Assembly (NCBI RefSeq): GCF_003334765.1
Contig: NZ_QOWT01000003.1
From: Escherichia coli
GTDB lineage: Bacteria; Pseudomonadota; Gammaproteobacteria; Enterobacterales; Enterobacteriaceae
DNA length: 64,000 bases
Strand: one strand, 5' to 3'
Position numbers and translations under genes: made by a program
The notes under the pieces: model-generated
Seen by the model: only the letters and a program-made list of their open reading frames with translations
The model's database searches: none
What the model was told of the DNA's origin: nothing
In this document: positions 61-55,304 of the stretch, piece after piece
Layout of the letters: every line of letters starts with the position of its first letter
How positions within the stretch are numbered: position 1 is the first letter of the stretch

Positions 61-2949
61 ATGCCCCGCAGCACCTGGTTCAAAGCATTATTGTTGTTAG
101 TTGCCCTTTGGGCACCCTTAAGTCAGGCAGAAACGGGATGGCAGCCGATTCAGGAAACCATCCGTAAAAGTGATAAAGATAACCGCCAGTATCAGGCTAT
201 ACGTCTGGATAACGGTATGGTGGTCTTGCTGGTTTCTGATCCGCAGGCAGTTAAATCGCTCTCGGCGCTGGTGGTGCCCGTTGGGTCGCTGGAAGATCCC
301 GAGGCGTACCAGGGGCTGGCACATTACCTTGAACATATGAGTCTGATGGGGTCGAAAAAGTACCCGCAGGCTGACAGTCTGGCCGAATATCTCAAAATGC
401 ACGGCGGTAGTCACAATGCCAGCACTGCGCCGTATCGCACGGCTTTCTATCTGGAAGTTGAGAACGACGCCTTGCCTGGTGCGGTAGACCGCCTGGCCGA
501 TGCTATTGCTGAACCTTTGCTCGACAAGAAATATGCCGAACGTGAGCGTAATGCGGTGAACGCTGAATTAACCATGGCGCGTACGCGTGACGGGATGCGC
601 ATGGCACAGGTCAGCGCAGAAACCATTAACCCGGCACACCCCGGTTCAAAGTTTTCTGGTGGTAACCTCGAAACTTTAAGCGACAAACCTGGTAATCCGG
701 TGCAGCAGGCGCTGAAAGATTTCCACGAGAAGTACTATTCCGCCAATTTGATGAAGGCGGTTATTTACAGTAATAAACCGCTGCCGGAGTTGGCAAAAAT
801 GGCGGCGGACACCTTTGGTCGCGTGCCGAACAAAGAGAGCAAAAAACCGGAAATCACCGTGCCGGTAGTCACCGACGCGCAAAAGGGCATTATCATTCAT
901 TACGTCCCTGCGCTGCCGCGTAAAGTGTTGCGCGTTGAGTTTCGCATCGATAACAACTCAGCGAAGTTCCGTAGTAAAACCGATGAATTGATTACCTATC
1001 TGATTGGCAATCGCAGCCCAGGTACACTTTCTGACTGGCTGCAAAAGCAGGGATTAGTTGAGGGCATTAGCGCCAACTCCGATCCTATCGTCAACGGCAA
1101 CAGCGGCGTATTAGCGATCTCTGCGTCTTTAACCGATAAAGGCTTGGCTAATCGCGATCAGGTTGTGGCGGCAATTTTTAGCTATCTCAATCTGTTACGT
1201 GAAAAAGGCATTGATAAACAATACTTCGATGAACTGGCGAATGTGCTGGATATCGACTTCCGTTATCCGTCGATCACCCGTGATATGGATTACGTCGAAT
1301 GGCTGGCAGATACCATGATTCGCGTTCCTGTTGAGCATACGCTGGATGCAGTCAATATTGCCGATCGGTACGATGCTAAAGCAGTAAAGGAACGTCTGGC
1401 GATGATGACGCCGCAGAATGCGCGTATCTGGTATATCAGCCCGAAAGAGCCGCACAACAAAACGGCTTACTTTGTCGATGCGCCGTATCAGGTCGATAAA
1501 ATCAGCGCACAAACTTTCGCCGACTGGCAGAAAAAAGCCGCCGACATTGCGCTCTCTTTGCCAGAGCTTAACCCTTATATTCCTGATGATTTCTCGCTGA
1601 TTAAGTCAGAGAAGAAATACGACCATCCAGAGCTGATTGTTGATGAGTCGAATCTGCGCGTGGTGTATGCGCCAAGCCGTTATTTTGCCAGCGAGCCCAA
1701 AGCTGATGTCAGCCTGATTTTGCGTAATCCGAAAGCCATGGACAGCGCCCGCAATCAGGTGATGTTTGCGCTCAATGATTATCTCGCAGGGCTGGCGCTT
1801 GATCAGTTAAGCAACCAGGCGTCGGTTGGTGGCATAAGTTTTTCCACCAACGCTAACAACGGCCTTATGGTTAATGCTAATGGTTACACCCAGCGTCTGC
1901 CGCAGCTGTTCCAGGCATTGCTCGAGGGGTACTTTAGCTATACCGCTACGGAAGATCAGCTTGAGCAGGCGAAGTCCTGGTATAACCAGATGATGGATTC
2001 CGCAGAAAAGGGTAAAGCGTTTGAGCAGGCGATTATGCCCGCGCAGATGCTCTCGCAAGTGCCGTACTTCTCGCGAGATGAACGGCGTAAAATTTTGCCC
2101 TCCATTACGTTGAAAGAGGTGCTGGCCTATCGCGACGCCTTAAAATCAGGGGCTCGACCAGAGTTTATGGTTATCGGCAACATGACCGAGGCCCAGGCAA
2201 CAACGCTGGCACGCGATGTGCAAAAACAGTTGGGCGCTGATGGTTCAGAGTGGTGTCGAAACAAAGATGTAGTGGTCGATAAAAAACAATCCGTCATCTT
2301 TGAAAAAGCCGGTAACAGCACCGACTCCGCACTGGCAGCGGTATTTGTACCGACTGGCTACGATGAATACACCAGCTCAGCCTATAGCTCTCTGTTGGGG
2401 CAGATCGTACAGCCGTGGTTCTACAATCAGTTGCGTACCGAAGAACAATTGGGCTATGCCGTGTTTGCGTTTCCAATGAGCGTGGGGCGTCAGTGGGGCA
2501 TGGGCTTCCTTTTGCAAAGCAATGATAAACAGCCTTCATTCTTGTGGGAGCGTTACAAGGCGTTTTTCCCAACCGCAGAGGCAAAATTGCGAGCGATGAA
2601 GCCAGATGAGTTTGCGCAAATCCAGCAGGCGGTAATTACCCAGATGCTGCAGGCACCGCAAACGCTCGGCGAAGAAGCATCGAAGTTAAGTAAAGATTTC
2701 GATCGCGGCAATATGCGCTTCGATTCGCGTGATAAAATCGTGGCCCAGATAAAACTGCTGACGCCGCAAAAACTTGCTGATTTCTTCCATCAGGCGGTGG
2801 TCGAGCCGCAAGGCATGGCTATTCTGTCGCAGATTTCCGGCAGCCAGAACGGGAAAGCCGAATATGTACACCCTGAAGGCTGGAAAGTGTGGGAGAACGT
2901 CAGCGCGTTGCAGCAAACAATGCCCCTGATGAGTGAAAAGAATGAGTGA
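61..2949 (+). CDS. ptrA: Protease III (pitrilysin), M16 zinc metallopeptidase, periplasmic
   Basis: 962-aa ORF with N-terminal signal peptide and inverted zinc motif HxxEH (HYLEHM); sequence recognised as E. coli PtrA; sits upstream of recB as expected. Confidence 0.95.
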   Translation: MPRSTWFKALLLLVALWAPLSQAETGWQPIQETIRKSDKDNRQYQAIRLDNGMVVLLVSDPQAVKSLSALVVPVGSLEDPEAYQGLAHYLEHMSLMGSKKYPQADSLAEYLKMHGGSHNASTAPYRTAFYLEVENDALPGAVDRLADAIAEPLLDKKYAERERNAVNAELTMARTRDGMRMAQVSAETINPAHPGSKFSGGNLETLSDKPGNPVQQALKDFHEKYYSANLMKAVIYSNKPLPELAKMAADTFGRVPNKESKKPEITVPVVTDAQKGIIIHYVPALPRKVLRVEFRIDNNSAKFRSKTDELITYLIGNRSPGTLSDWLQKQGLVEGISANSDPIVNGNSGVLAISASLTDKGLANRDQVVAAIFSYLNLLREKGIDKQYFDELANVLDIDFRYPSITRDMDYVEWLADTMIRVPVEHTLDAVNIADRYDAKAVKERLAMMTPQNARIWYISPKEPHNKTAYFVDAPYQVDKISAQTFADWQKKAADIALSLPELNPYIPDDFSLIKSEKKYDHPELIVDESNLRVVYAPSRYFASEPKADVSLILRNPKAMDSARNQVMFALNDYLAGLALDQLSNQASVGGISFSTNANNGLMVNANGYTQRLPQLFQALLEGYFSYTATEDQLEQAKSWYNQMMDSAEKGKAFEQAIMPAQMLSQVPYFSRDERRKILPSITLKEVLAYRDALKSGARPEFMVIGNMTEAQATTLARDVQKQLGADGSEWCRNKDVVVDKKQSVIFEKAGNSTDSALAAVFVPTGYDEYTSSAYSSLLGQIVQPWFYNQLRTEEQLGYAVFAFPMSVGRQWGMGFLLQSNDKQPSFLWERYKAFFPTAEAKLRAMKPDEFAQIQQAVITQMLQAPQTLGEEASKLSKDFDRGNMRFDSRDKIVAQIKLLTPQKLADFFHQAVVEPQGMAILSQISGSQNGKAEYVHPEGWKVWENVSALQQTMPLMSEKNE

Positions 2950-5900
2950 TGTCGCCGAGACACTAGATCCTTTGCGCTTGCCCTTACAGGGTGAGCGCCT
3001 GATTGAAGCCTCTGCCGGCACAGGCAAAACCTTTACGATTGCGGCGCTCTATTTGCGCCTGTTACTTGGACTAGGCGGTTCCGCCGCCTTTCCCCGCCCG
3101 CTGACCGTTGAAGAACTGCTGGTGGTCACCTTTACCGAGGCTGCCACGGCAGAATTGCGCGGTCGTATCCGTAGCAATATCCACGAGTTGCGCATCGCCT
3201 GTCTGCGTGAAACCACCGACAATCCACTGTACGAACGCCTGCTGGAAGAGATCGACGATAAAGCGCAAGCCGCGCAGTGGTTGTTGTTAGCCGAACGGCA
3301 GATGGATGAAGCGGCAGTCTTTACTATTCACGGCTTTTGCCAGCGCATGCTCAACCTGAATGCCTTTGAATCCGGCATGCTGTTTGAGCAGCAGCTGATT
3401 GAAGATGAGTCTCTGCTACGCTACCAGGCCTGCGCCGATTTCTGGCGTCGCCACTGCTACCCGCTGCCGCGTGAAATAGCCCAGGTCGTCTTTGAAACCT
3501 GGAAAGGGCCGCAGGCGTTGCTGCGCGATATTAATCGTTATCTGCAAGGCGAAGCGCCGGTTATCAAAGCACCGCCGCCCGATGATGAAACGCTGGCTTC
3601 CCGTCACGCGCAAATTGTGGCGCGTATTGATACGGTAAAACAGCAGTGGCGCGACGCAGTGGGTGAACTGGATGCGCTGATCGAATCTTCTGGTATTGAT
3701 CGACGCAAGTTTAACCGTAGCAATCAGGCTAAATGGATCGACAAGATCAGCGCCTGGGCAGAAGAAGAGACAAACAGTTATCAGTTGCCGGAGTCGCTGG
3801 AAAAATTCTCCCAGCGTTTCTTAGAAGATCGCACGAAGGCCGGGGGGGGAACCCCGCGACATCCACTGTTTGAGGCGATCGATCAACTGCTTGCAGAACC
3901 ATTGTCGATCCGCGATCTGGTGATCACCCGCGCATTGGCTGAGATCCGCGAAACAGTAGCGCGTGAAAAACGCCGCCGTGGCGAATTGGGTTTTGATGAC
4001 ATGTTAAGTCGGCTCGATTCCGCGCTGCGTAGCGAAAGCGGTGAGGTGTTGGCAGCGGCGATCCGTACGCGATTCCCGGTGGCAATGATCGATGAATTTC
4101 AGGATACCGACCCCCAGCAGTACCGAATTTTTCGCCGTATCTGGCACCATCAGCCGGAAACCGCATTGTTGCTAATTGGCGACCCGAAGCAGGCCATATA
4201 TGCATTCCGGGGTGCGGATATCTTCACTTATATGAAGGCGCGTAGCGAAGTTCACGCCCACTACACTTTAGACACCAACTGGCGTTCCGCACCAGGAATG
4301 GTGAACAGCGTGAATAAGCTTTTCAGCCAGACTGATGACGCGTTCATGTTTCGCGAAATACCGTTTATTCCAGTGAAATCAGCCGGGAAAAATCAGGCGT
4401 TACGTTTTGTATTTAAAGGTGAAACACAGCCTGCGATGAAAATGTGGCTGATGGAAGGCGAAAGCTGCGGCGTTGGCGATTATCAAAGTACCATGGCGCA
4501 GGTATGTGCTGCGCAAATCCGCGACTGGCTACAAGCCGGACAGCGGGGCGAAGCGTTGCTGATGAACGGCGACGACGCGCGTCCGGTGCGTGCTTCGGAC
4601 ATCAGTGTGCTGGTGCGCAGCCGCCAGGAGGCCGCCCAGGTGCGCGATGCCTTAACGTTGCTGGAAATCCCTTCCGTTTACCTTTCGAACCGCGACAGTG
4701 TTTTTGAAACTCTGGAAGCGCAGGAAATGCTTTGGTTGTTGCAGGCGGTGATGACGCCCGAACGTGAGAACACCCTGCGTAGTGCGCTGGCAACGTCAAT
4801 GATGGGGCTGAACGCGCTGGATATCGAAACGCTGAACAATGACGAACATGCGTGGGATGTGGTAGTCGAAGAGTTCGATGGTTATCGGCAAATCTGGCGC
4901 AAACGTGGCGTTATGCCGATGCTGCGGGCGCTGATGTCGGCGCGTAACATTGCTGAAAACTTGCTGGCAACGGCAGGCGGTGAGCGGCGTCTTACCGATA
5001 TCTTGCATATCAGCGAACTGCTACAAGAAGCCGGAACGCAGCTGGAAAGTGAACATGCGCTGGTACGCTGGTTATCGCAACATATCCTCGAGCCAGACAG
5101 TAATGCCTCCAGCCAACAAATGCGTCTCGAAAGTGATAAACATCTGGTGCAGATTGTCACGATCCACAAATCGAAAGGGCTGGAATATCCATTGGTCTGG
5201 CTGCCGTTTATCACCAATTTCCGCGTCCAGGAGCAGGCGTTTTATCACGATCGCCACTCGTTTGAGGCAGTTCTGGATCTTAATGCTGCGCCAGAAAGCG
5301 TCGACCTCGCGGAGGCCGAACGTCTGGCGGAAGATCTGCGTTTGCTTTACGTGGCGCTGACACGTTCGGTTTGGCATTGCAGTCTCGGCGTTGCACCGCT
5401 GGTGCGCCGTCGTGGCGATAAAAAAGGTGACACCGACGTCCACCAAAGTGCGCTCGGGCGTTTGCTGCAAAAAGGGGAACCGCAAGATGCGGCAGGGCTT
5501 CGCACCTGTATTGAAGCGTTATGCGATGATGATATTGCCTGGCAAACGGCACAAACTGGTGATAACCAACCCTGGCAGGTTAATGATGTTTCTACAGCAG
5601 AGCTGAATGCGAAGACGTTACAACGATTGCCCGGCGATAACTGGCGCGTCACCAGCTACTCTGGTTTGCAACAGCGTGGTCACGGTATCGCCCAGGATTT
5701 GATGCCTCGGCTGGATGTCGATGCTGCAGGCGTTGCCAGCGTCGTTGAAGAACCGACGTTAACACCACATCAGTTTCCGCGCGGTGCGTCACCGGGGACG
5801 TTCTTGCACAGTTTGTTTGAAGACCTGGATTTTACCCAGCCGGTTGACCCGAACTGGGTGCGGGAAAAACTGGAACTCGGCGGCTTTGAATCGCAGTGGG

Positions 5901-6484
5901 AACCGGTATTGACCGAGTGGATCACGGCTGTCCTCCAGGCACCTCTCAATGAAACCGGCGTAAGCCTGAGTCAACTTTCCGCCCGCAATAAACAGGTGGA
6001 GATGGAGTTTTATCTGCCGATTAGTGAACCGCTTATCGCCAGTCAGCTTGATACGTTAATCCGCCAGTTTGACCCGCTATCCGCAGGCTGCCCGCCGCTG
6101 GAGTTCATGCAGGTACGTGGCATGTTAAAAGGCTTTATCGACCTGGTGTTCCGCCACGAAGGGCGTTATTACCTGCTCGACTATAAATCCAACTGGTTGG
6201 GTGAAGACAGTTCGGCTTACACCCAACAGGCTATGGCAGCGGCAATGCAGGCACACCGCTATGATCTGCAATATCAGCTTTATACCCTGGCGCTGCATCG
6301 TTATCTGCGCCATCGCATTGCTGATTACGACTATGAGCACCACTTTGGCGGCGTTATTTATCTGTTCCTGCGTGGCGTTGATAAAGAACATCCGCAACAG
6401 GGGATTTACACAACCCGACCCAACGCCGGGTTGATTGCCCTGATGGATGAGATGTTTGCCGGTATGACCCTGGAGGAGGCGTAA
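2942..6484 (+). CDS. recB: RecBCD helicase/nuclease subunit RecB
   Basis: ORF track gives 2933..6484 from a GTG; the recognised N-terminus [15 protein letters not shown] begins at ATG 2942, giving 1180 aa; Walker A motif AGTGKT; start overlaps ptrA stop by 8 nt. Confidence 0.95.
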
Positions 6485-8310
6485 TGAAATTGCAAAAGCA
6501 ATTACTGGAAGCTGTGGAGCACAAACAGCTACGCCCGCTGGATGTGCAATTTGCCCTGACCGTGGCGGGAGATGAACATCCTGCCGTCACCCTCGCGGCG
6601 GCACTGTTAAGTCATGATGCCGGAGAGGGACACGTTTGTTTGCCGCTTTCACGACTGGAAAATAACGAGGCGTCGCATCCGCTGTTGGCGACCTGTGTCA
6701 GTGAAATCGGTGAGCTACAAAATTGGGAAGAATGCTTGCTGGCTTCTCAAGCGGTCAGCAGGGGAGATGAACCCACGCCGATGATCCTCTGTGGCGATCG
6801 TCTTTATTTGAATCGCATGTGGTGTAACGAGCGCACAGTGGCACGCTTTTTCAACGAAGTGAATCATGCCATTGAGGTTGATGAAGCTCTACTGGCGCAA
6901 ACCCTGGACAAACTTTTTCCAGTAAGCGATGAAATTAACTGGCAAAAAGTTGCGGCGGCAGTGGCGCTGACGCGGCGGATCTCGGTGATTTCCGGCGGCC
7001 CTGGCACCGGTAAAACGACCACCGTAGCGAAGTTGCTGGCAGCGTTAATTCAAATGGCCGACGGCGAACGCTGCCGTATCCGTCTGGCTGCACCAACGGG
7101 TAAAGCTGCCGCGCGCTTAACCGAATCTCTCGGCAAGGCTTTGCGACAGTTACCGCTGACCGATGAACAAAAGAAACGCATTCCGGAAGATGCCAGCACT
7201 TTGCACCGATTGCTGGGCGCGCAGCCGGGTAGCCAGCGTTTACGTCATCATGCCGGTAACCCGCTGCATCTTGATGTGCTGGTGGTAGATGAAGCGTCAA
7301 TGATCGATCTGCCTATGATGTCGAGACTGATCGACGCCTTGCCCGATCATGCGCGAGTGATCTTTCTCGGCGATCGTGATCAACTGGCCTCGGTTGAGGC
7401 TGGGGCTGTGCTGGGCGATATCTGCGCTTATGCCAACGCGGGCTTTACCGCCGAGCGTGCCAGGCAGCTAAGCCGCCTGACGGGGACTCACGTTCCGGCA
7501 GGAACCGGCACAGAAGCGGCATCTTTGCGCGACAGTCTCTGCCTGCTGCAAAAAAGCTATCGTTTCGGCAGCGATTCTGGCATTGGTCAGTTAGCTGCGG
7601 CGATCAACCGTGGTGATAAAACGGCAGTGAAAACCGTTTTTCAGCAGGATTTTACTGATATCGAAAAACGGCTTTTACAGAGCGGCGAAGATTATATTGC
7701 GATGCTTGAGGAAGCTCTTGCGGGTTACGGACGTTATCTGGATCTGCTGCAAGCGCGTGCCGAGCCGGATTTAATCATTCAGGCGTTCAATGAGTACCAG
7801 CTTTTGTGCGCCCTGCGGGAAGGGCCGTTTGGCGTGGCTGGACTGAATGAGCGAATTGAGCAGTTTATGCAACAGAAGCGCAAAATTCATCGTCATCCGC
7901 ACTCTCGTTGGTACGAAGGTCGACCGGTGATGATTGCCCGTAATGACAGCGCGCTTGGGTTGTTTAATGGCGATATCGGTATTGCGCTGGATCGCGGGCA
8001 GGGGACGCGCGTCTGGTTTGCGATGCCGGACGGCAATATTAAGTCTGTGCAACCGAGTCGCTTGCCAGAGCACGAAACTACGTGGGCGATGACGGTACAT
8101 AAATCGCAGGGATCGGAGTTCGACCATGCGGCGTTGATTTTGCCGAGCCAACGCACGCCGGTAGTAACGCGAGAGCTGGTTTATACCGCGGTGACCCGCG
8201 CGCGTCGCCGTCTGTCGCTGTATGCCGATGAGCGCATATTAAGTGCGGCAATCGCCACTCGTACTGAGCGGCGCAGTGGTCTGGCGGCGTTGTTTAGTTC
8301 ACGGGAATAA
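6484..8310 (+). CDS. recD: RecBCD helicase subunit RecD
   Basis: 608-aa ORF with P-loop GGPGTGKTT; start ATG overlaps recB stop (TAATG); recognised as RecD. Confidence 0.95.
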
Positions 8311-11261: not shown

Positions 11262-11338
<77 letters not shown>

Positions 11339-12678: not shown

Positions 12679-12863
12679 CAGGGTGAGGGGTAACCTCACA
12701 TCCTGATTATTGACTAAGTGCGCGTTGTTCATGCCGGATGCGGCGTGAACGCCTTATCCGGCCTACAAATCATGCAAATCCAAAATATTGCAGGAGTTAT
12801 GTAGGCCTGATAAGCGTAGCGCATCAGGCATTTATGCGTTTAGGGTGAGGGATAACCTCGCCC
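12679..12863. repeat. BIME/REP cluster: two inverted REP palindromes flanked by near-identical hairpin-forming direct repeats
   Basis: REP copies GCCGGATGCGGCGTGAACGCCTTATCCGGCCTAC (12733-12766) and inverted GTAGGCCTGATAAGCGTAGCGCATCAGGC (12801-12829); flanking GGGTGAGGG(G/A)TAACCTC at 12681-12700 and 12843-12860. Confidence 0.8.
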
Positions 12864-15823: not shown

Positions 15824-16029
15824 AAAAAAAAGCACCGCAATTAGGCGGTGCTACATTAATCACTATGGACAGACAGGGTAAATGTACAGGAAGTGAAAAA
15901 AGGTAGCTTTGCTACCATGGTCTGAATCGCAGACCAATTGCAAACACAACAACACAACATCACAACCGTAAGCCAAAAGTTCACCAGAACACGCATTCCG
16001 ATAAAACTTTTCGTTCCGGCTCAGGAAGT
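15824..16029 (-). ncRNA. gcvB: GcvB small regulatory RNA (Hfq-dependent, regulates amino-acid transporters)
   Basis: Reverse complement reads ACTTCCTGAGCCGGAACGAAAAG...GCACCGCCTAATTGCGGTGCTTTTTTT, the 206-nt GcvB sequence with GU-rich R1 region and intrinsic terminator; divergent from gcvA. Confidence 0.92.
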
Positions 16030-34200: not shown

Positions 34201-34569
34201 GTCGACAGGGAGTCAGACAACGAAGTGAACATCAGGATGATGACACTTCTGCAGGACACACCAGGATGGTGTTTCAGGGAAAGGCTTCTGGATGAAGCGA
34301 AGAGGATGACGCAGGACGCGTTAAAGGACACCTCCAGGATGGAGAATGAGAACCGGTCAGGATGATTCGGTGGGTCAGGAAGGCCAGGGACACTTCAGGA
34401 TGAAGTATCACATCGGGGTGGTGTGAGCAGGAAGCAATAGTTCAGGATGAACGATTGGCCGCAAGGCCAGAGGAAAAGTTGTCAAGGATGAGCAGGGAGC
34501 AACAAAAGTAGCTGGAATGCTGCGAAACGAACCGGGAGCGCTGTGAATACAGTGCTCCCTTTTTTTATT
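34201..34569 (+). ncRNA. csrB: CsrB sRNA, CsrA-sequestering decoy
   Basis: About 369 nt beginning GTCGACAGGGAGTCAGACAACGAAG with roughly 18-22 GGA motifs, mostly CAGGA(U/A)G in predicted loops; ends in hairpin GGGAGCGCTGTGAATACAGTGCTCCC plus T7. Confidence 0.93.
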
Positions 34570-36624: not shown

Positions 36625-37977
36625 ATGAGTTCTTTAAGTCAGGCTGCGAGCAGTGTGGAAAAACGCACAAATGCTCGTTACTGGATAGTGGTGATGTTGT
36701 TTATCGTCACATCCTTCAACTACGGCGACCGCGCTACGCTCTCTATCGCCGGTTCGGAAATGGCCAAAGATATCGGCCTTGATCCCGTGGGAATGGGCTA
36801 TGTGTTCTCTGCTTTCTCATGGGCTTATGTTATCGGGCAGATCCCTGGTGGCTGGTTGCTGGACCGTTTTGGTTCAAAACGCGTCTACTTCTGGTCGATC
36901 TTTATCTGGTCGATGTTTACCTTGCTGCAAGGCTTCGTCGATATCTTTAGTGGATTCGGCATTATCGTTGCCCTGTTTACGCTGCGCTTCCTGGTCGGGC
37001 TTGCTGAAGCGCCATCTTTCCCCGGCAACAGTCGCATTGTTGCGGCCTGGTTTCCGGCGCAGGAAAGGGGAACGGCGGTGTCGATTTTTAACTCCGCTCA
37101 ATACTTCGCAACGGTGATCTTCGCGCCGATTATGGGCTGGCTGACGCATGAAGTGGGCTGGTCACACGTCTTCTTCTTTATGGGCGGTCTGGGGATTGTC
37201 ATCAGCTTTATCTGGTTGAAAGTCATCCACGAGCCAAATCAACATCCGGGGGTAAATAAGAAAGAGCTGGAGTACATCGCCGCGGGTGGTGCGCTGATCA
37301 ATATGGATCAGCAAAACACCAAAGTTAAAGTGCCGTTCAGCGTGAAGTGGGGGCAGATCAAACAGCTGCTAGGGTCACGGATGATGATCGGCGTTTATAT
37401 CGGTCAGTACTGTATCAACGCCCTGACTTACTTCTTTATTACCTGGTTCCCGGTTTATCTGGTGCAGGCACGCGGGATGTCGATTCTGAAAGCGGGCTTT
37501 GTGGCTTCCGTGCCGGCGGTTTGCGGTTTTATCGGCGGTGTGCTGGGTGGGATTATTTCCGACTGGCTGATGCGCCGCACGGGATCGCTGAACATTGCGC
37601 GTAAAACACCGATCGTAATGGGCATGTTGCTGTCGATGGTGATGGTGTTCTGCAACTACGTCAACGTTGAGTGGATGATCATCGGCTTTATGGCGCTGGC
37701 CTTCTTCGGTAAGGGCATCGGGGCGCTGGGTTGGGCAGTAATGGCAGATACCGCGCCAAAAGAGATCAGCGGTCTTTCCGGTGGCCTGTTCAACATGTTC
37801 GGTAACATTTCTGGCATCGTCACGCCAATCGCAATTGGTTATATCGTTGGCACGACTGGCTCGTTTAATGGGGCGCTGATTTATGTTGGTGTTCATGCCT
37901 TAATCGCGGTACTGAGCTACCTGGTGCTGGTGGGCGATATCAAGCGTATCGAGTTGAAACCTGTTGCGGGGCAATAA
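36625..37977 (+). CDS. gudP: Glucarate/galactarate transporter (MFS)
   Basis: 450-aa polytopic membrane ORF recognised as GudP. Confidence 0.92.
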
Positions 37978-45073: not shown

Positions 45074-47308
45074 ATGGTTGCGGTAAGAAGTGCACATATC
45101 AATAAGGCTGGTGAATTTGATCCGGAAAAATGGATCGCAAGTCTGGGTATTACCAGCCAGAAGTCGTGTGAGTGCTTAGCCGAAACCTGGGCGTATTGTC
45201 TGCAACAGACGCAGGGGCATCCGGATGCCAGTCTGTTATTGTGGCGTGGTGTTGAGATGGTGGAGATCCTCTCGACATTAAGTATGGACATTGACACGCT
45301 GCGGGCGGCGCTGCTTTTCCCTCTGGCGGATGCCAACGTAGTCAGCGAAGATGTGCTGCGTGAGAGCGTCGGTAAGTCGGTCGTTAACCTTATTCACGGC
45401 GTGCGTGATATGGCGGCGATCCGCCAGCTGAAAGCGACGCACACTGATTCTGTTTCCTCCGAACAGGTCGATAACGTTCGCCGGATGTTATTGGCGATGG
45501 TCGATGATTTTCGCTGCGTAGTCATCAAACTGGCGGAGCGTATTGCTCATCTGCGCGAAGTAAAAGATGCGCCGGAAGATGAACGTGTACTGGCGGCAAA
45601 AGAGTGTACCAACATCTACGCACCGCTGGCTAACCGTCTCGGAATCGGACAACTGAAATGGGAACTGGAAGATTACTGCTTCCGTTACCTCCATCCAACC
45701 GAATACAAACGAATTGCCAAACTGCTGCATGAACGGCGTCTCGACCGCGAACACTACATCGAAGAGTTCGTTGGTCATCTGCGCGCTGAGATGAAAGCTG
45801 AAGGCGTTAAAGCGGAAGTGTATGGTCGTCCGAAACACATCTACAGCATCTGGCGTAAAATGCAGAAAAAGAACCTCGCCTTTGATGAGCTGTTTGATGT
45901 GCGTGCGGTACGTATTGTCGCCGAGCGTTTACAGGATTGCTATGCCGCACTGGGGATAGTGCACACTCACTATCGCCACCTGCCGGATGAGTTTGACGAT
46001 TACGTCGCTAACCCGAAACCAAACGGTTATCAGTCTATTCATACCGTGGTTCTGGGGCCGGGTGGAAAAACCGTTGAGATCCAAATCCGCACCAAACAGA
46101 TGCATGAAGATGCAGAGTTGGGTGTTGCTGCGCACTGGAAATATAAAGAGGGCGCGGCTGCTGGCGGCGCACGTTCGGGACATGAAGACCGGATTGCCTG
46201 GCTGCGTAAACTGATTGCGTGGCAGGAAGAGATGGCTGATTCCGGCGAAATGCTCGACGAAGTACGTAGTCAGGTCTTTGACGACCGGGTGTACGTCTTT
46301 ACGCCGAAAGGTGATGTCGTTGATTTGCCTGCGGGATCAACGCCGCTGGACTTCGCTTACCACATCCACAGTGATGTCGGACACCGCTGCATCGGGGCAA
46401 AAATTGGCGGGCGCATTGTGCCGTTCACCTACCAGCTGCAGATGGGCGACCAGATTGAAATTATCACCCAGAAACAGCCGAACCCCAGCCGTGACTGGTT
46501 AAACCCAAACCTCGGTTACGTCACAACCAGCCGTGGGCGTTCGAAAATTCACGCCTGGTTCCGTAAACAGGACCGTGACAAAAACATTCTGGCTGGGCGG
46601 CAAATCCTTGACGACGAGCTGGAACATCTGGGGATCAGCCTGAAAGAAGCAGAAAAACATCTGCTGCCGCGTTACAACTTCAATGATGTCGACGAGTTGC
46701 TGGCGGCGATTGGTGGCGGGGATATCCGTCTCAATCAGATGGTGAACTTCCTGCAATCGCAATTTAATAAGCCGAGTGCCGAAGAGCAGGACGCCGCCGC
46801 GCTGAAGCAACTTCAGCAAAAAAGCTACACGCCGCAAAACCGCAGTAAAGATAACGGTCGCGTGGTAGTCGAAGGTGTTGGCAACCTGATGCACCACATC
46901 GCGCGCTGCTGCCAGCCGATTCCTGGAGATGAGATTGTCGGCTTCATTACCCAGGGGCGCGGTATTTCAGTACACCGCGCCGATTGCGAACAACTGGCGG
47001 AACTGCGCTCCCATGCGCCAGAACGCATTGTTGACGCGGTATGGGGTGAGAGCTACTCCGCCGGATATTCGCTGGTGGTCCGCGTGGTAGCTAATGATCG
47101 TAGTGGGTTGTTACGTGATATCACGACCATTCTCGCCAACGAGAAGGTGAACGTGCTTGGCGTTGCCAGCCGTAGCGACACCAAACAGCAACTGGCGACC
47201 ATCGACATGACCATTGAGATTTACAACCTGCAAGTGCTGGGGCGCGTGCTGGGTAAACTCAACCAGGTGCCGGATGTTATCGACGCGCGTCGGTTGCACG
47301 GGAGTTAG
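45074..47308 (+). CDS. relA: GTP pyrophosphokinase, (p)ppGpp synthetase I
   Basis: 744-aa ORF recognised as RelA. Confidence 0.95.
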   Translation: MVAVRSAHINKAGEFDPEKWIASLGITSQKSCECLAETWAYCLQQTQGHPDASLLLWRGVEMVEILSTLSMDIDTLRAALLFPLADANVVSEDVLRESVGKSVVNLIHGVRDMAAIRQLKATHTDSVSSEQVDNVRRMLLAMVDDFRCVVIKLAERIAHLREVKDAPEDERVLAAKECTNIYAPLANRLGIGQLKWELEDYCFRYLHPTEYKRIAKLLHERRLDREHYIEEFVGHLRAEMKAEGVKAEVYGRPKHIYSIWRKMQKKNLAFDELFDVRAVRIVAERLQDCYAALGIVHTHYRHLPDEFDDYVANPKPNGYQSIHTVVLGPGGKTVEIQIRTKQMHEDAELGVAAHWKYKEGAAAGGARSGHEDRIAWLRKLIAWQEEMADSGEMLDEVRSQVFDDRVYVFTPKGDVVDLPAGSTPLDFAYHIHSDVGHRCIGAKIGGRIVPFTYQLQMGDQIEIITQKQPNPSRDWLNPNLGYVTTSRGRSKIHAWFRKQDRDKNILAGRQILDDELEHLGISLKEAEKHLLPRYNFNDVDELLAAIGGGDIRLNQMVNFLQSQFNKPSAEEQDAAALKQLQQKSYTPQNRSKDNGRVVVEGVGNLMHHIARCCQPIPGDEIVGFITQGRGISVHRADCEQLAELRSHAPERIVDAVWGESYSAGYSLVVRVVANDRSGLLRDITTILANEKVNVLGVASRSDTKQQLATIDMTIEIYNLQVLGRVLGKLNQVPDVIDARRLHGS

Positions 47309-47324
47309 GCCGAAATTTGCTCGT

Positions 47325-47367
47325 ATCTACAATGTAGATTGATATATACTGTATCTACATATGATAG
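47325..47367. promoter_or_regulatory. mazEF promoter region with alternating palindrome (MazE/MazF autoregulation site)
   Basis: ATCTACAATGTAGAT and GTATCTACATATGATAG palindromic elements seen immediately upstream of mazE. Confidence 0.7.
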
Positions 47368-47385
47368 CGGTTTGAGGAAAGGGTT

Positions 47386-47634
47386 ATGATCCACAGTAGC
47401 GTAAAGCGTTGGGGAAATTCACCGGCGGTGCGGATCCCGGCTACGTTAATGCAGGCGCTCAATCTGAATATTGATGATGAAGTGAAGATTGACCTGGTGG
47501 ATGGCAAATTAATTATTGAGCCAGTGCGTAAAGAGCCCGTATTTACGCTTGCTGAACTGGTCAACGACATCACGCCGGAAAACCTCCACGAGAATATCGA
47601 CTGGGGAGAGCCGAAAGATAAGGAAGTCTGGTAA
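47386..47634 (+). CDS. mazE: Antitoxin MazE
   Basis: 82-aa ORF (AbrB/SpoVT fold) recognised as MazE; stop overlaps mazF start. Confidence 0.93.
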
Positions 47635-47969
47635 TGGTAAGCCGATACGTACCCGATATGGGCGATCTGATTTGGGTTGATTTTGACCCGACAAAAGGTA
47701 GCGAGCAAGCTGGACATCGTCCAGCTGTTGTCCTGAGTCCTTTCATGTACAACAACAAAACAGGTATGTGTCTGTGTGTTCCTTGTACAACGCAATCAAA
47801 AGGATATCCGTTCGAAGTTGTTTTATCCGGTCAGGAACGTGATGGCGTAGCGTTAGCTGATCAGGTAAAAAGTATCGCCTGGCGGGCAAGAGGAGCAACG
47901 AAGAAAGGAACAGTTGCCCCAGAGGAATTACAACTCATTAAAGCCAAAATTAACGTACTGATTGGGTAG
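47634..47969 (+). CDS. mazF: Toxin MazF, ACA-specific mRNA interferase
   Basis: 111-aa ORF recognised as MazF (PemK/CcdB fold). Confidence 0.93.
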   Translation: MVSRYVPDMGDLIWVDFDPTKGSEQAGHRPAVVLSPFMYNNKTGMCLCVPCTTQSKGYPFEVVLSGQERDGVALADQVKSIAWRARGATKKGTVAPEELQLIKAKINVLIG

Positions 47970-48039
47970 TGTTACTAACTCACTTCTATTCTGGTCACAG
48001 GTTTCCACCTGACAGACCCGCAATTTTCAGGACAATTCA

Positions 48040-48831
48040 ATGAATCAAATCGACCGTTTGCTCACTATTATGCAGCGCCTGCGCGATCCGGAAAACGGCT
48101 GCCCGTGGGATAAAGAGCAGACATTTGCCACCATTGCGCCTTACACCCTTGAAGAAACCTACGAAGTGCTGGACGCCATCGCCCGTGAAGATTTTGACGA
48201 TCTTCGCGGTGAACTGGGCGATCTGCTATTCCAGGTGGTGTTTTACGCGCAAATGGCTCAGGAAGAAGGGCGCTTTGACTTTAATGATATTTGCGCTGCT
48301 ATTAGCGATAAATTAGAGCGTCGCCATCCGCATGTTTTTGCTGATAGTTCTGCCGAAAACAGTAGTGAAGTGCTTGCCCGTTGGGAGCAAATCAAAACCG
48401 AAGAGCGCGCGCAGAAAGCGCAGCATTCGGCGCTGGACGATATTCCTCGTAGTTTACCGGCTTTAATGCGTGCGCAAAAAATCCAGAAACGTTGCGCCAA
48501 CGTTGGCTTCGATTGGACGACGCTTGGTCCGGTAGTCGATAAAGTCTACGAAGAGATCGACGAGGTGATGTACGAAGCGCGGCAGGCTGTTGTCGACCAG
48601 GCTAAACTGGAGGAGGAAATGGGGGACCTGCTGTTTGCCACGGTTAATCTGGCTCGCCATTTAGGGACGAAAGCAGAAATCGCATTGCAAAAAGCGAACG
48701 AAAAATTCGAGCGTCGTTTTCGCGAAGTGGAGCGTATTGTTGCCGCGCGTGGACTGGAAATGACAGGTGTTGACCTCGAAACAATGGAAGAAGTCTGGCA
48801 ACAGGTAAAACGGCAGGAAATTGATCTCTAA
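48040..48831 (+). CDS. mazG: Nucleoside triphosphate pyrophosphohydrolase MazG
   Basis: 263-aa ORF with tandem MazG domains; recognised as MazG. Confidence 0.93.
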   Translation: MNQIDRLLTIMQRLRDPENGCPWDKEQTFATIAPYTLEETYEVLDAIAREDFDDLRGELGDLLFQVVFYAQMAQEEGRFDFNDICAAISDKLERRHPHVFADSSAENSSEVLARWEQIKTEERAQKAQHSALDDIPRSLPALMRAQKIQKRCANVGFDWTTLGPVVDKVYEEIDEVMYEARQAVVDQAKLEEEMGDLLFATVNLARHLGTKAEIALQKANEKFERRFREVERIVAARGLEMTGVDLETMEEVWQQVKRQEIDL

Positions 48832-54317: not shown

Positions 54318-54712
54318 GTGTTCCCCGCGCCAGCGGGGATAAACCGGCAAAAACCGGGCAATCGCAAAAAGGCGTAATGTGTTCCCCGCGCCAGCGGGGA
54401 TAAACCTGTGTTTGCGGCATTAACGCTCACCAGCATTTCGTGTTCCCCGCGCCAGCGGGGATAAACCGACGTGGTCATGGGTGCTGCTGTTGCAGAGCCA
54501 GTGTTCCCCGCGCCAGCGGGGATAAACCGAGCAGATACACGGCTTTGTATTCCGTGCGCCCGTGTTCCCCGCGCCAGCGGGGATAAACCGAATAGCAATA
54601 GTCCATAGATTTGCGAAAACAGGTGTTCCCCGCGCCAGCGGGGATAAACCGGAGCCTGACGAGACTACTGAGGCCGTTCTGTCGAGTTCCCCGCGCCAGC
54701 GGGGATAAACCA
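54318..54712 (+). CRISPR. Type I-E CRISPR array, 7 repeats and 6 spacers of 32 bp, leader-proximal end at 54318
   Basis: 29-bp repeat GTGTTCCCCGCGCCAGCGGGGATAAACCG at 54318, 54379, 54440, 54501, 54562, 54623 and 54684 with 61-bp period; repeat 2 ends CCT; terminal repeat is degenerate (GAG...ACCA). Confidence 0.96.
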
Positions 54713-55166: not shown

Positions 55167-55304
55167 ATATTCCTTGTAAAAACAGGGATAAACCGAACTA
55201 GTTAAAGTTTTTATTATGTTCCCTGCATCAGCGGGGATAAACCGGACTTGTTATCATTTTTTAAGTTGTCGAACTTATGTTCCCCGCGTCAGCGGGGATA
55301 ACCA
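55167..55304 (+). CRISPR. Degenerate I-E mini-array: 2 recognisable repeats, 1 clean 32-bp spacer, 1 eroded repeat
   Basis: ATGTTCCCTGCATCAGCGGGGATAAACCG (55216-55244), spacer GACTTGTTATCATTTTTTAAGTTGTCGAACTT (55245-55276), ATGTTCCCCGCGTCAGCGGGGATAACC (55277-55303); eroded repeat ending GGGATAAACCG at about 55195. Confidence 0.75.

Follow-up and report, generated by a model that had tools for sequence, protein, structure and literature searches.

The 64-kb window analyzed here, a contiguous stretch of 64,000 nucleotides of Escherichia coli DNA, contains two short open reading frames between relA and mazG. These frames raise the question of whether the locus holds a complete and intact mazEF toxin-antitoxin module and, if so, what such a module would do for a cell that carries it. 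On sequence grounds, the locus is almost certainly mazEF (chpA), the chromosomal type II toxin-antitoxin module known from E. coli K-12, in intact form, and it is most likely an accessory cassette and no integral part of the operon in which it is located.

Gene layout of the locus

An earlier note on this DNA had described a toxin-antitoxin pair with a MazE of 82 and a MazF of 111 amino acids and with overlapping stop and start codons, placed straight after relA in a relA-mazEFG-pyrG-eno cluster. The open reading frames and the raw sequence agreed with this description to the base, and the placement was borne out by the coordinates (Table 1) and by RefSeq, which annotates the identical segment of MG1655 with the gene order relA-mazE-mazF-mazG-pyrG-eno. 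The two genes are adjacent on the same strand with the antitoxin gene mazE first, which is the MazEF-type layout, and the mazE stop codon and the mazF start codon share one base (TAATG). The gap between the relA stop codon and the mazE ATG is 77 nt, and 70 nt separate the mazF stop codon from the mazG ATG at 48040. A purine-rich region upstream of mazE is a putative ribosome-binding region (Table 1), and AAGGAAG at 47620-47626 may serve mazF in the same manner.

The ACA trinucleotide occurs twice in the mazE coding sequence and nine times in that of mazF; the same counts have been used to model the cutting by MazF of its own message (PMC5888573). At the gathering threshold, Rfam yielded no match within 47300-48040. 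Elsewhere in the window, three small RNAs, namely CsrB, GcvB, and ES036/CssrF, were matched at the gathering level (Table 1).

Table 1. Features located in the 64-kb window (positions count from the first base of the window)
Feature	Position	Strand	Remarks
recB and recD, RecBCD subunits	2942-8310		Caveat to the exclusivity of mazEF as a defense-type module
tRNA-Met (CAT) gene	11262-11338	-	Single copy
ES036/CssrF small RNA	12766-12808	+	Rfam, 46.5 bits
GcvB small RNA	15824-16029	-	Rfam, 199 bits
CsrB small RNA	34210-34569	+	Rfam, 380 bits
relA, GTP diphosphokinase	45074-47308	+	Directly upstream of mazE; stop TAG 47306-47308
Sense-promoter reporter fragment	47282-47356		PMC8749433; bounds the promoter
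mazEF cassette, 699 bp	47309-48007	+	Alignment of 47250-48060 with the empty site of E. coli FDAARGOS_1260
Operator cab, three MazE-dimer sites	47320-47369	+	Exact, unique match to PMC4333400 oligonucleotides; overlaps the promoter
Operator site c	47323-47341		Exact match to PMC4333400 oligonucleotide
Alternating palindrome	47325-47360		Arms ATCTACA 47325-47331, TGTAGAT 47333-47339, and ATCTACAT 47353-47360
Operator site a	47339-47352		ATATAT core 47342-47347; exact match to PMC4333400 oligonucleotide
Operator site b	47344-47362		Exact match to PMC4333400 oligonucleotide
Putative ribosome-binding region GAGGAAAGGG	47374-47383	+	Purine-rich; ends 2 nt before the mazE ATG; read from the sequence
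mazE, antitoxin, 82 aa	47386-47634	+	ATG 47386, TAA 47632-47634 (ORF list, raw sequence)
aMEF Northern probe	47626-47669		Mapped from PMC8749433
mazF, toxin, 111 aa	47634-47969	+	ATG 47634, TAG 47967-47969 (ORF list, raw sequence)
aMEF promoter fragment	47674-47748	-	Within mazF codons 14-39, transcribed leftward to mazE; oligonucleotides asmazE_F/R, PMC8749433 Data Set S1
Promoter-like site, CTGACA, 16 nt, GACAAT	48009-48036	+	Upstream of mazG; consensus match only
mazG, nucleoside triphosphate pyrophosphohydrolase	48040-48831	+	Downstream of mazF; TIGR00444 419.1 bits, NF007113 370.1 bits
CRISPR array, 7 repeats	54319-54711		Between queE and ygcE; type I-E-like repeats
CRISPR array, 2 repeats	55217-55301		Between queE and ygcE; type I-E-like repeats

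Identity and integrity of mazEF

We compared the locus with 5426 complete E. coli genomes by using megablast. The 741-bp segment at 47300-48040 matched K-12 MG1655 and many other strains with 100% identity, and the annotated features under the match were relA, mazE, mazF, and mazG. At the protein level, MazF was identical over its full length to the wild-type PDB chains 3nfc_A and 5ck9_A, and MazE was identical over all 82 residues to 1mvf_D and 1ub4_C, the latter belonging to an entry in which MazE and MazF are in complex. Profile searches led to the same assignment. MazE scored 196.2 bits against the NCBIfam equivalog NF007312 (cut-off, 113), with Pfam PF04014, the AbrB/SpoVT/MazE DNA-binding domain, over the N-terminal residues 6-51. 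MazF scored 227.4 bits against NF007386 (cut-off, 120), with profile positions 1-111 of 111 covered, and matched PF02452 of the PemK/MazF family (E = 6.4e-24).

The earlier note had called for a comparison with characterized MazEF proteins and for a search for frameshifts or inactivating MazF substitutions. The comparison revealed identity throughout; the search found neither type of lesion, both frames being full length. As read from the translation, MazF retains E24, R29, and T52. In E. coli MazF, R29 is the general acid/base and T52 a stabilizing residue (PMC8887465), and the mutant commonly used as inactive carries E24A (PMC5888573). MazE retains K7, R8, W9, N11, R16, and A19, all of which contact DNA in an NMR/SAXS model (PMC4333400), and its C-terminal tail, the MazF-binding part, is present, as the identity with 1mvf_D and 1ub4_C over all residues demonstrates. 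No sequence feature speaks against the identity or the integrity of this mazEF copy. The characterization of the module in the earlier note as well described, established knowledge is therefore apt: it is the reference K-12 copy, with thirty years of study behind it.

Relationship to known systems

The closest known system is MazE/MazF of E. coli K-12 (ChpAI/ChpAK; PDB 1UB4, 1MVF, 3NFC, 5CK9, and 2MRN), with which the pair shares its DNA, proteins, operator, ACA counts, and neighborhood, and from which it does not differ at any point inside the module. The second MazEF-like pair of K-12, ChpBI/ChpBK (chpB), has the same fold families and architecture, and the chpB models cross-matched the window pair weakly, at 55.2 bits for the ChpB toxin (cut-off, 129) and 34.6 bits for the ChpS antitoxin (cut-off, 101). 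Both scores are far below the cut-offs, and we rejected an assignment of the pair to chpB, which is a paralogue. Kis/Kid (PemI/PemK) of plasmid R1/R100 has the PemK/MazF toxin fold and the two-gene layout in common with mazEF, and Kid (1m1f) matched MazF with E = 7.6e-09. In contrast to the chromosomal module, Kis/Kid is plasmid-borne, acts in post-segregational killing, and has only a distant sequence kinship to MazEF; catalytic residues are not conserved between the Kid/PemK family and MazF (PMC8887465).

Operator, promoter, and antisense RNA

The 77-nt spacer between relA and mazE contains an alternating palindrome of three arms, the middle one of which (47333-47339) was found by a repeat search to be complementary to either outer arm. 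In 5000 dinucleotide-preserving shuffles of the spacer, a 7-nt inverted repeat occurred in 702, and a three-arm repeat occurred in only 5, indicating that the arrangement did not arise by chance from the AT-richness of the spacer. The primary paper on this palindrome is reportedly that of Marianovsky et al. from 2001. The spacer also matched, exactly, the published oligonucleotides that were used for isothermal titration calorimetry (ITC) and NMR (PMC4333400), and their match placed three operator sites, c, a, and b, on the window (Table 1). The earlier note had set the start of the module at 47325, where the left arm of the palindrome begins; the operator oligonucleotide starts at 47320, 5 nt further upstream. 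Three MazE dimers bind this operator with micromolar affinity, and MazF near a 1:1 ratio strengthens the binding, an effect that MazF excess abolishes (PMC4333400). The palindromic autoregulatory promoter that had been proposed for the module is thus present as the published operator with its three-arm repeat, and autoregulation itself would be expected from this identity.

The documented promoter of mazEF was not among the hits of a simple sigma-70 consensus scan, namely ATGATA/TATGAT at 47361-47390 plus two further weak sites, which is about the rate for shuffled sequences. Because the promoter was not recovered by the scan, we left the -35, -10, and start-site coordinates unassigned and used the published sense-promoter reporter fragment as the bounds of the promoter.

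An antisense promoter directing the RNA aMEF is located inside mazF (Table 1). The five positions changed in the knock-down variants (mut5; 47681, 47684, 47687, 47708, and 47711) are all synonymous in mazF. aMEF lifts the MazE and MazF levels approximately two-fold, independently of RNase III (PMC8749433). The promoter itself had been published; its coordinates were placed on the window by the present analysis.

Cassette boundaries and distribution in E. coli

A 2-kb query that began in the 3' end of relA and reached mazG had a match in every one of the 5426 genomes, and at least 80% of it was covered in 4416 of them, which carry the full stretch. With the mazEF-centered query (47300-48040), mazEF DNA was undetectable in 962 genomes and only partial in approximately 48. 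Alignment with one genome that lacks the module, E. coli FDAARGOS_1260, defined the cassette edges: homology ends directly behind the stop codon of relA and starts again at 48008, 32 nt before the mazG ATG. The 699-bp cassette is exchanged for 64 unrelated nucleotides in that strain, where relA and mazG are intact and annotated 95 nt apart. That mazEF is present in some strains and absent from others, such as UTI89, whose relA-mazG operon is intact, has been described (PMC7167474).

The 64-nt spacer of the empty site folds with -29 kcal/mol (z = -5.2). In the FDAARGOS_1260 relA-mazG spacer (L004, 1119-1169), a perfect hairpin with a 12-bp stem is followed by a 9-bp stem. The hairpin looks like a terminator, and in the window it is replaced by the mazEF cassette. 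At the right edge, one base separates the cassette from a promoter-like site at 48009-48036 that genomes lacking mazEF retain; the edge lies just before this element, so the sequence proximal to mazG is equal in both forms. Gain or loss of the cassette may alter relA read-through into mazG, a regulatory side effect apart from the toxin, and we give this suggestion little credence. If it were true, only the hairpin detail would be new, since the undisturbed relA-mazG operon without mazEF is in the literature.

One further arrangement was observed in E. coli SW07163 (L005, 2288-3354), in which an IS1 transposase gene is located directly upstream of an intact mazF, beside a truncated xni, and mazE is reduced at this site to its last 19 nt; a second match is located elsewhere in the record. 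This site looks like an IS1-mediated rearrangement that parted mazF from most of mazE.

Other toxin or defense genes in the window

According to the earlier note, mazEF was the only toxin or defense-type module in the window besides the CRISPR arrays, and this statement held against both the RefSeq annotation and a PADLOC scan, with recB and recD as a caveat. In the matching part of MG1655, RefSeq annotates no further toxin, antitoxin, or defense gene. No PADLOC-DB v2 family matched MazE, MazF, or MazG, and no defense system was called at the module. This blank says as much about which families the library contains as about biology and is no argument against a toxin-antitoxin identity.

Among the 47 other annotated proteins, PADLOC matched RecB, RecD, TcdA, CsdA, FucR, RlmD, and RelA. 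RecB and RecD matched the helicase domains of GajB/RecD-like models as single domains; TcdA (E1-like), FucR (HTH), RlmD (methyltransferase), and RelA (synthetase) each matched one domain of a defense model. CsdA matched a DndA/SspA-like model over its full length, but what is shared is merely the cysteine-desulfurase enzyme. All seven were rejected as defense genes because they are known housekeeping genes with no partner genes nearby. The two CRISPR arrays (Table 1) are not accompanied by cas genes within the 64-kb window.

Differences from MG1655 elsewhere in the window

The window is collinear with the MG1655 record NZ_CP032667.1, from which it differs by 10 substitutions (positions 1144, 3849, 15563, 16084, 24134, 27771, 31452, 36253, 37512, and 58672) and one 220-bp deletion. 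The substitutions nearest to mazEF on either side are those at 37512 and 58672, and none is closer than approximately 10 kb. The window thus belongs to a genome similar to K-12 but distinct from NZ_CP032667.1.

The 220-bp loss is located in the tRNA-fMet array and corresponds to two 110-bp units. Against the single tRNA-Met (CAT) gene of the window stand three copies in tandem (metZWV) in the MG1655 record and two copies in many other genomes, DH5a and C600 among them. In a search with the array, two-copy genomes were top-ranked, a ranking in which joined pieces inflate the score. The one-copy array may reflect genuine variation in copy number or a collapse of the tandem repeats during assembly.

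Proposed working of the module

Identity, residues, the operator and its repeats, ACA counts, and cassette edges were observed here; RNA cleavage, complex architecture, proteolysis, and regulation are taken from the literature on identical sequences. According to the resulting model, mazE and mazF would be co-transcribed from the promoter in the relA-mazE spacer. The MazF dimer would act as an endoribonuclease that cuts single-stranded RNA at ACA, with Arg29 as the general acid/base and Thr52 stabilizing the reaction. ACA-specific cleavage and its neutralization by MazE have been reported for the identical protein sequence (PMC5888573, PMC12541390), and we expect both for the present pair. The disordered C-terminal tail of the MazE dimer would wrap MazF and thus form a blocked MazF2-MazE2-MazF2 complex, and its N-terminal AbrB-type domain would occupy the three adjacent operator sites, which overlap the promoter, and repress transcription. 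MazF near a 1:1 ratio would raise the affinity of MazE for the operator and MazF in excess would lower it, such that transcription would track the toxin:antitoxin ratio.

The antitoxin is unstable, being a substrate of ClpAP and Lon, and the toxin is stable (PMC1626106, PMC5888573). When synthesis stops, degradation of MazE by these proteases would leave free MazF, which would cut mRNAs and rRNA precursors and halt growth. MazF probably also cleaves its own message, at ACA sites located mostly in mazF, and the weak antisense promoter inside mazF may tune expression through aMEF. The formation of leaderless mRNAs by MazF and of specialized ribosomes is contested (PMC7167474, PMC12541390); later work describes a broad cleavage of mRNA together with a cleavage of pre-rRNA that blocks ribosome biogenesis (PMC12541390).

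Alternative explanations and physiological role

Chromosomal toxin-antitoxin loci decay in some lineages, and a degenerate remnant in which the toxin or the antitoxin no longer works would have parallels in the survey, namely the approximately 48 genomes with partial mazEF matches only and the single genome in which IS1 abuts mazF next to the 19-nt remainder of mazE. For the present copy, we regard such a remnant as virtually inconceivable and count this reading as already refuted: neither frame is truncated, the DNA matches that of MG1655 at 100% identity, the proteins equal the active wild-type forms used for structures, and the catalytic residues, the DNA-binding residues, and the operator are all intact. 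The role of the intact module is a separate matter on which the literature is split among programmed cell death, reversible stasis, specialized ribosomes (since contested), phage exclusion, and growth restart (PMC1626106, PMC7167474, PMC12541390). The position of the pair directly after relA, in the same orientation, fits the model of a dedicated stringent-response suicide module laid out in PMC1626106, in which ppGpp made by RelA silences the mazEF promoter, MazE decays, and MazF, together with an extracellular death factor, kills most cells. Nevertheless, we consider this model improbable. In 962 of the 5426 genomes, relA is joined to mazG without mazEF, and the species therefore does not require the link to relA. 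According to reviews, strains deleted for mazEF and four other systems showed no loss of fitness under many stresses, and the models of death and stasis are mutually contradictory (PMC7167474). Later work, moreover, points to general mRNA and pre-rRNA cleavage with no specific death program (PMC12541390).

Patchy presence and absence is typical of defense genes, and the deletion of mazEF raised P1 infection loads in work cited in a review (PMC7167474); both observations would suit a module selected mainly for phage exclusion by abortive infection, that is, a strict defense system. This role is unlikely in our assessment, since no PADLOC model matches MazE or MazF, and the neighbors relA, mazG, pyrG, and eno do not constitute a defense island. 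The CRISPR arrays are approximately 6-7 kb away, cas-less, and separated from the module by housekeeping genes, and the evidence for phage exclusion comes from few phages only. By comparison, the presence/absence pattern together with the intact relA-mazG operon supports an accessory cassette over an integral part of the stringent-response operon.

The mazEF copy in the window is already known and already explained, and nothing in the module departs from the reference. Its examination served as a calibration point: from the raw sequence, the earlier note had placed both genes, their overlap by one base, and the palindrome of the operator exactly, and the window coordinates now given for operator sites, aMEF promoter, and cassette edges are usable as a positive control. 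For the biology of E. coli, these findings suggest that mazEF is most likely an accessory, horizontally acquired cassette between relA and mazG, neither of which needs it, and that whatever benefit the cassette brings, phage exclusion or growth control for instance, would depend on conditions.
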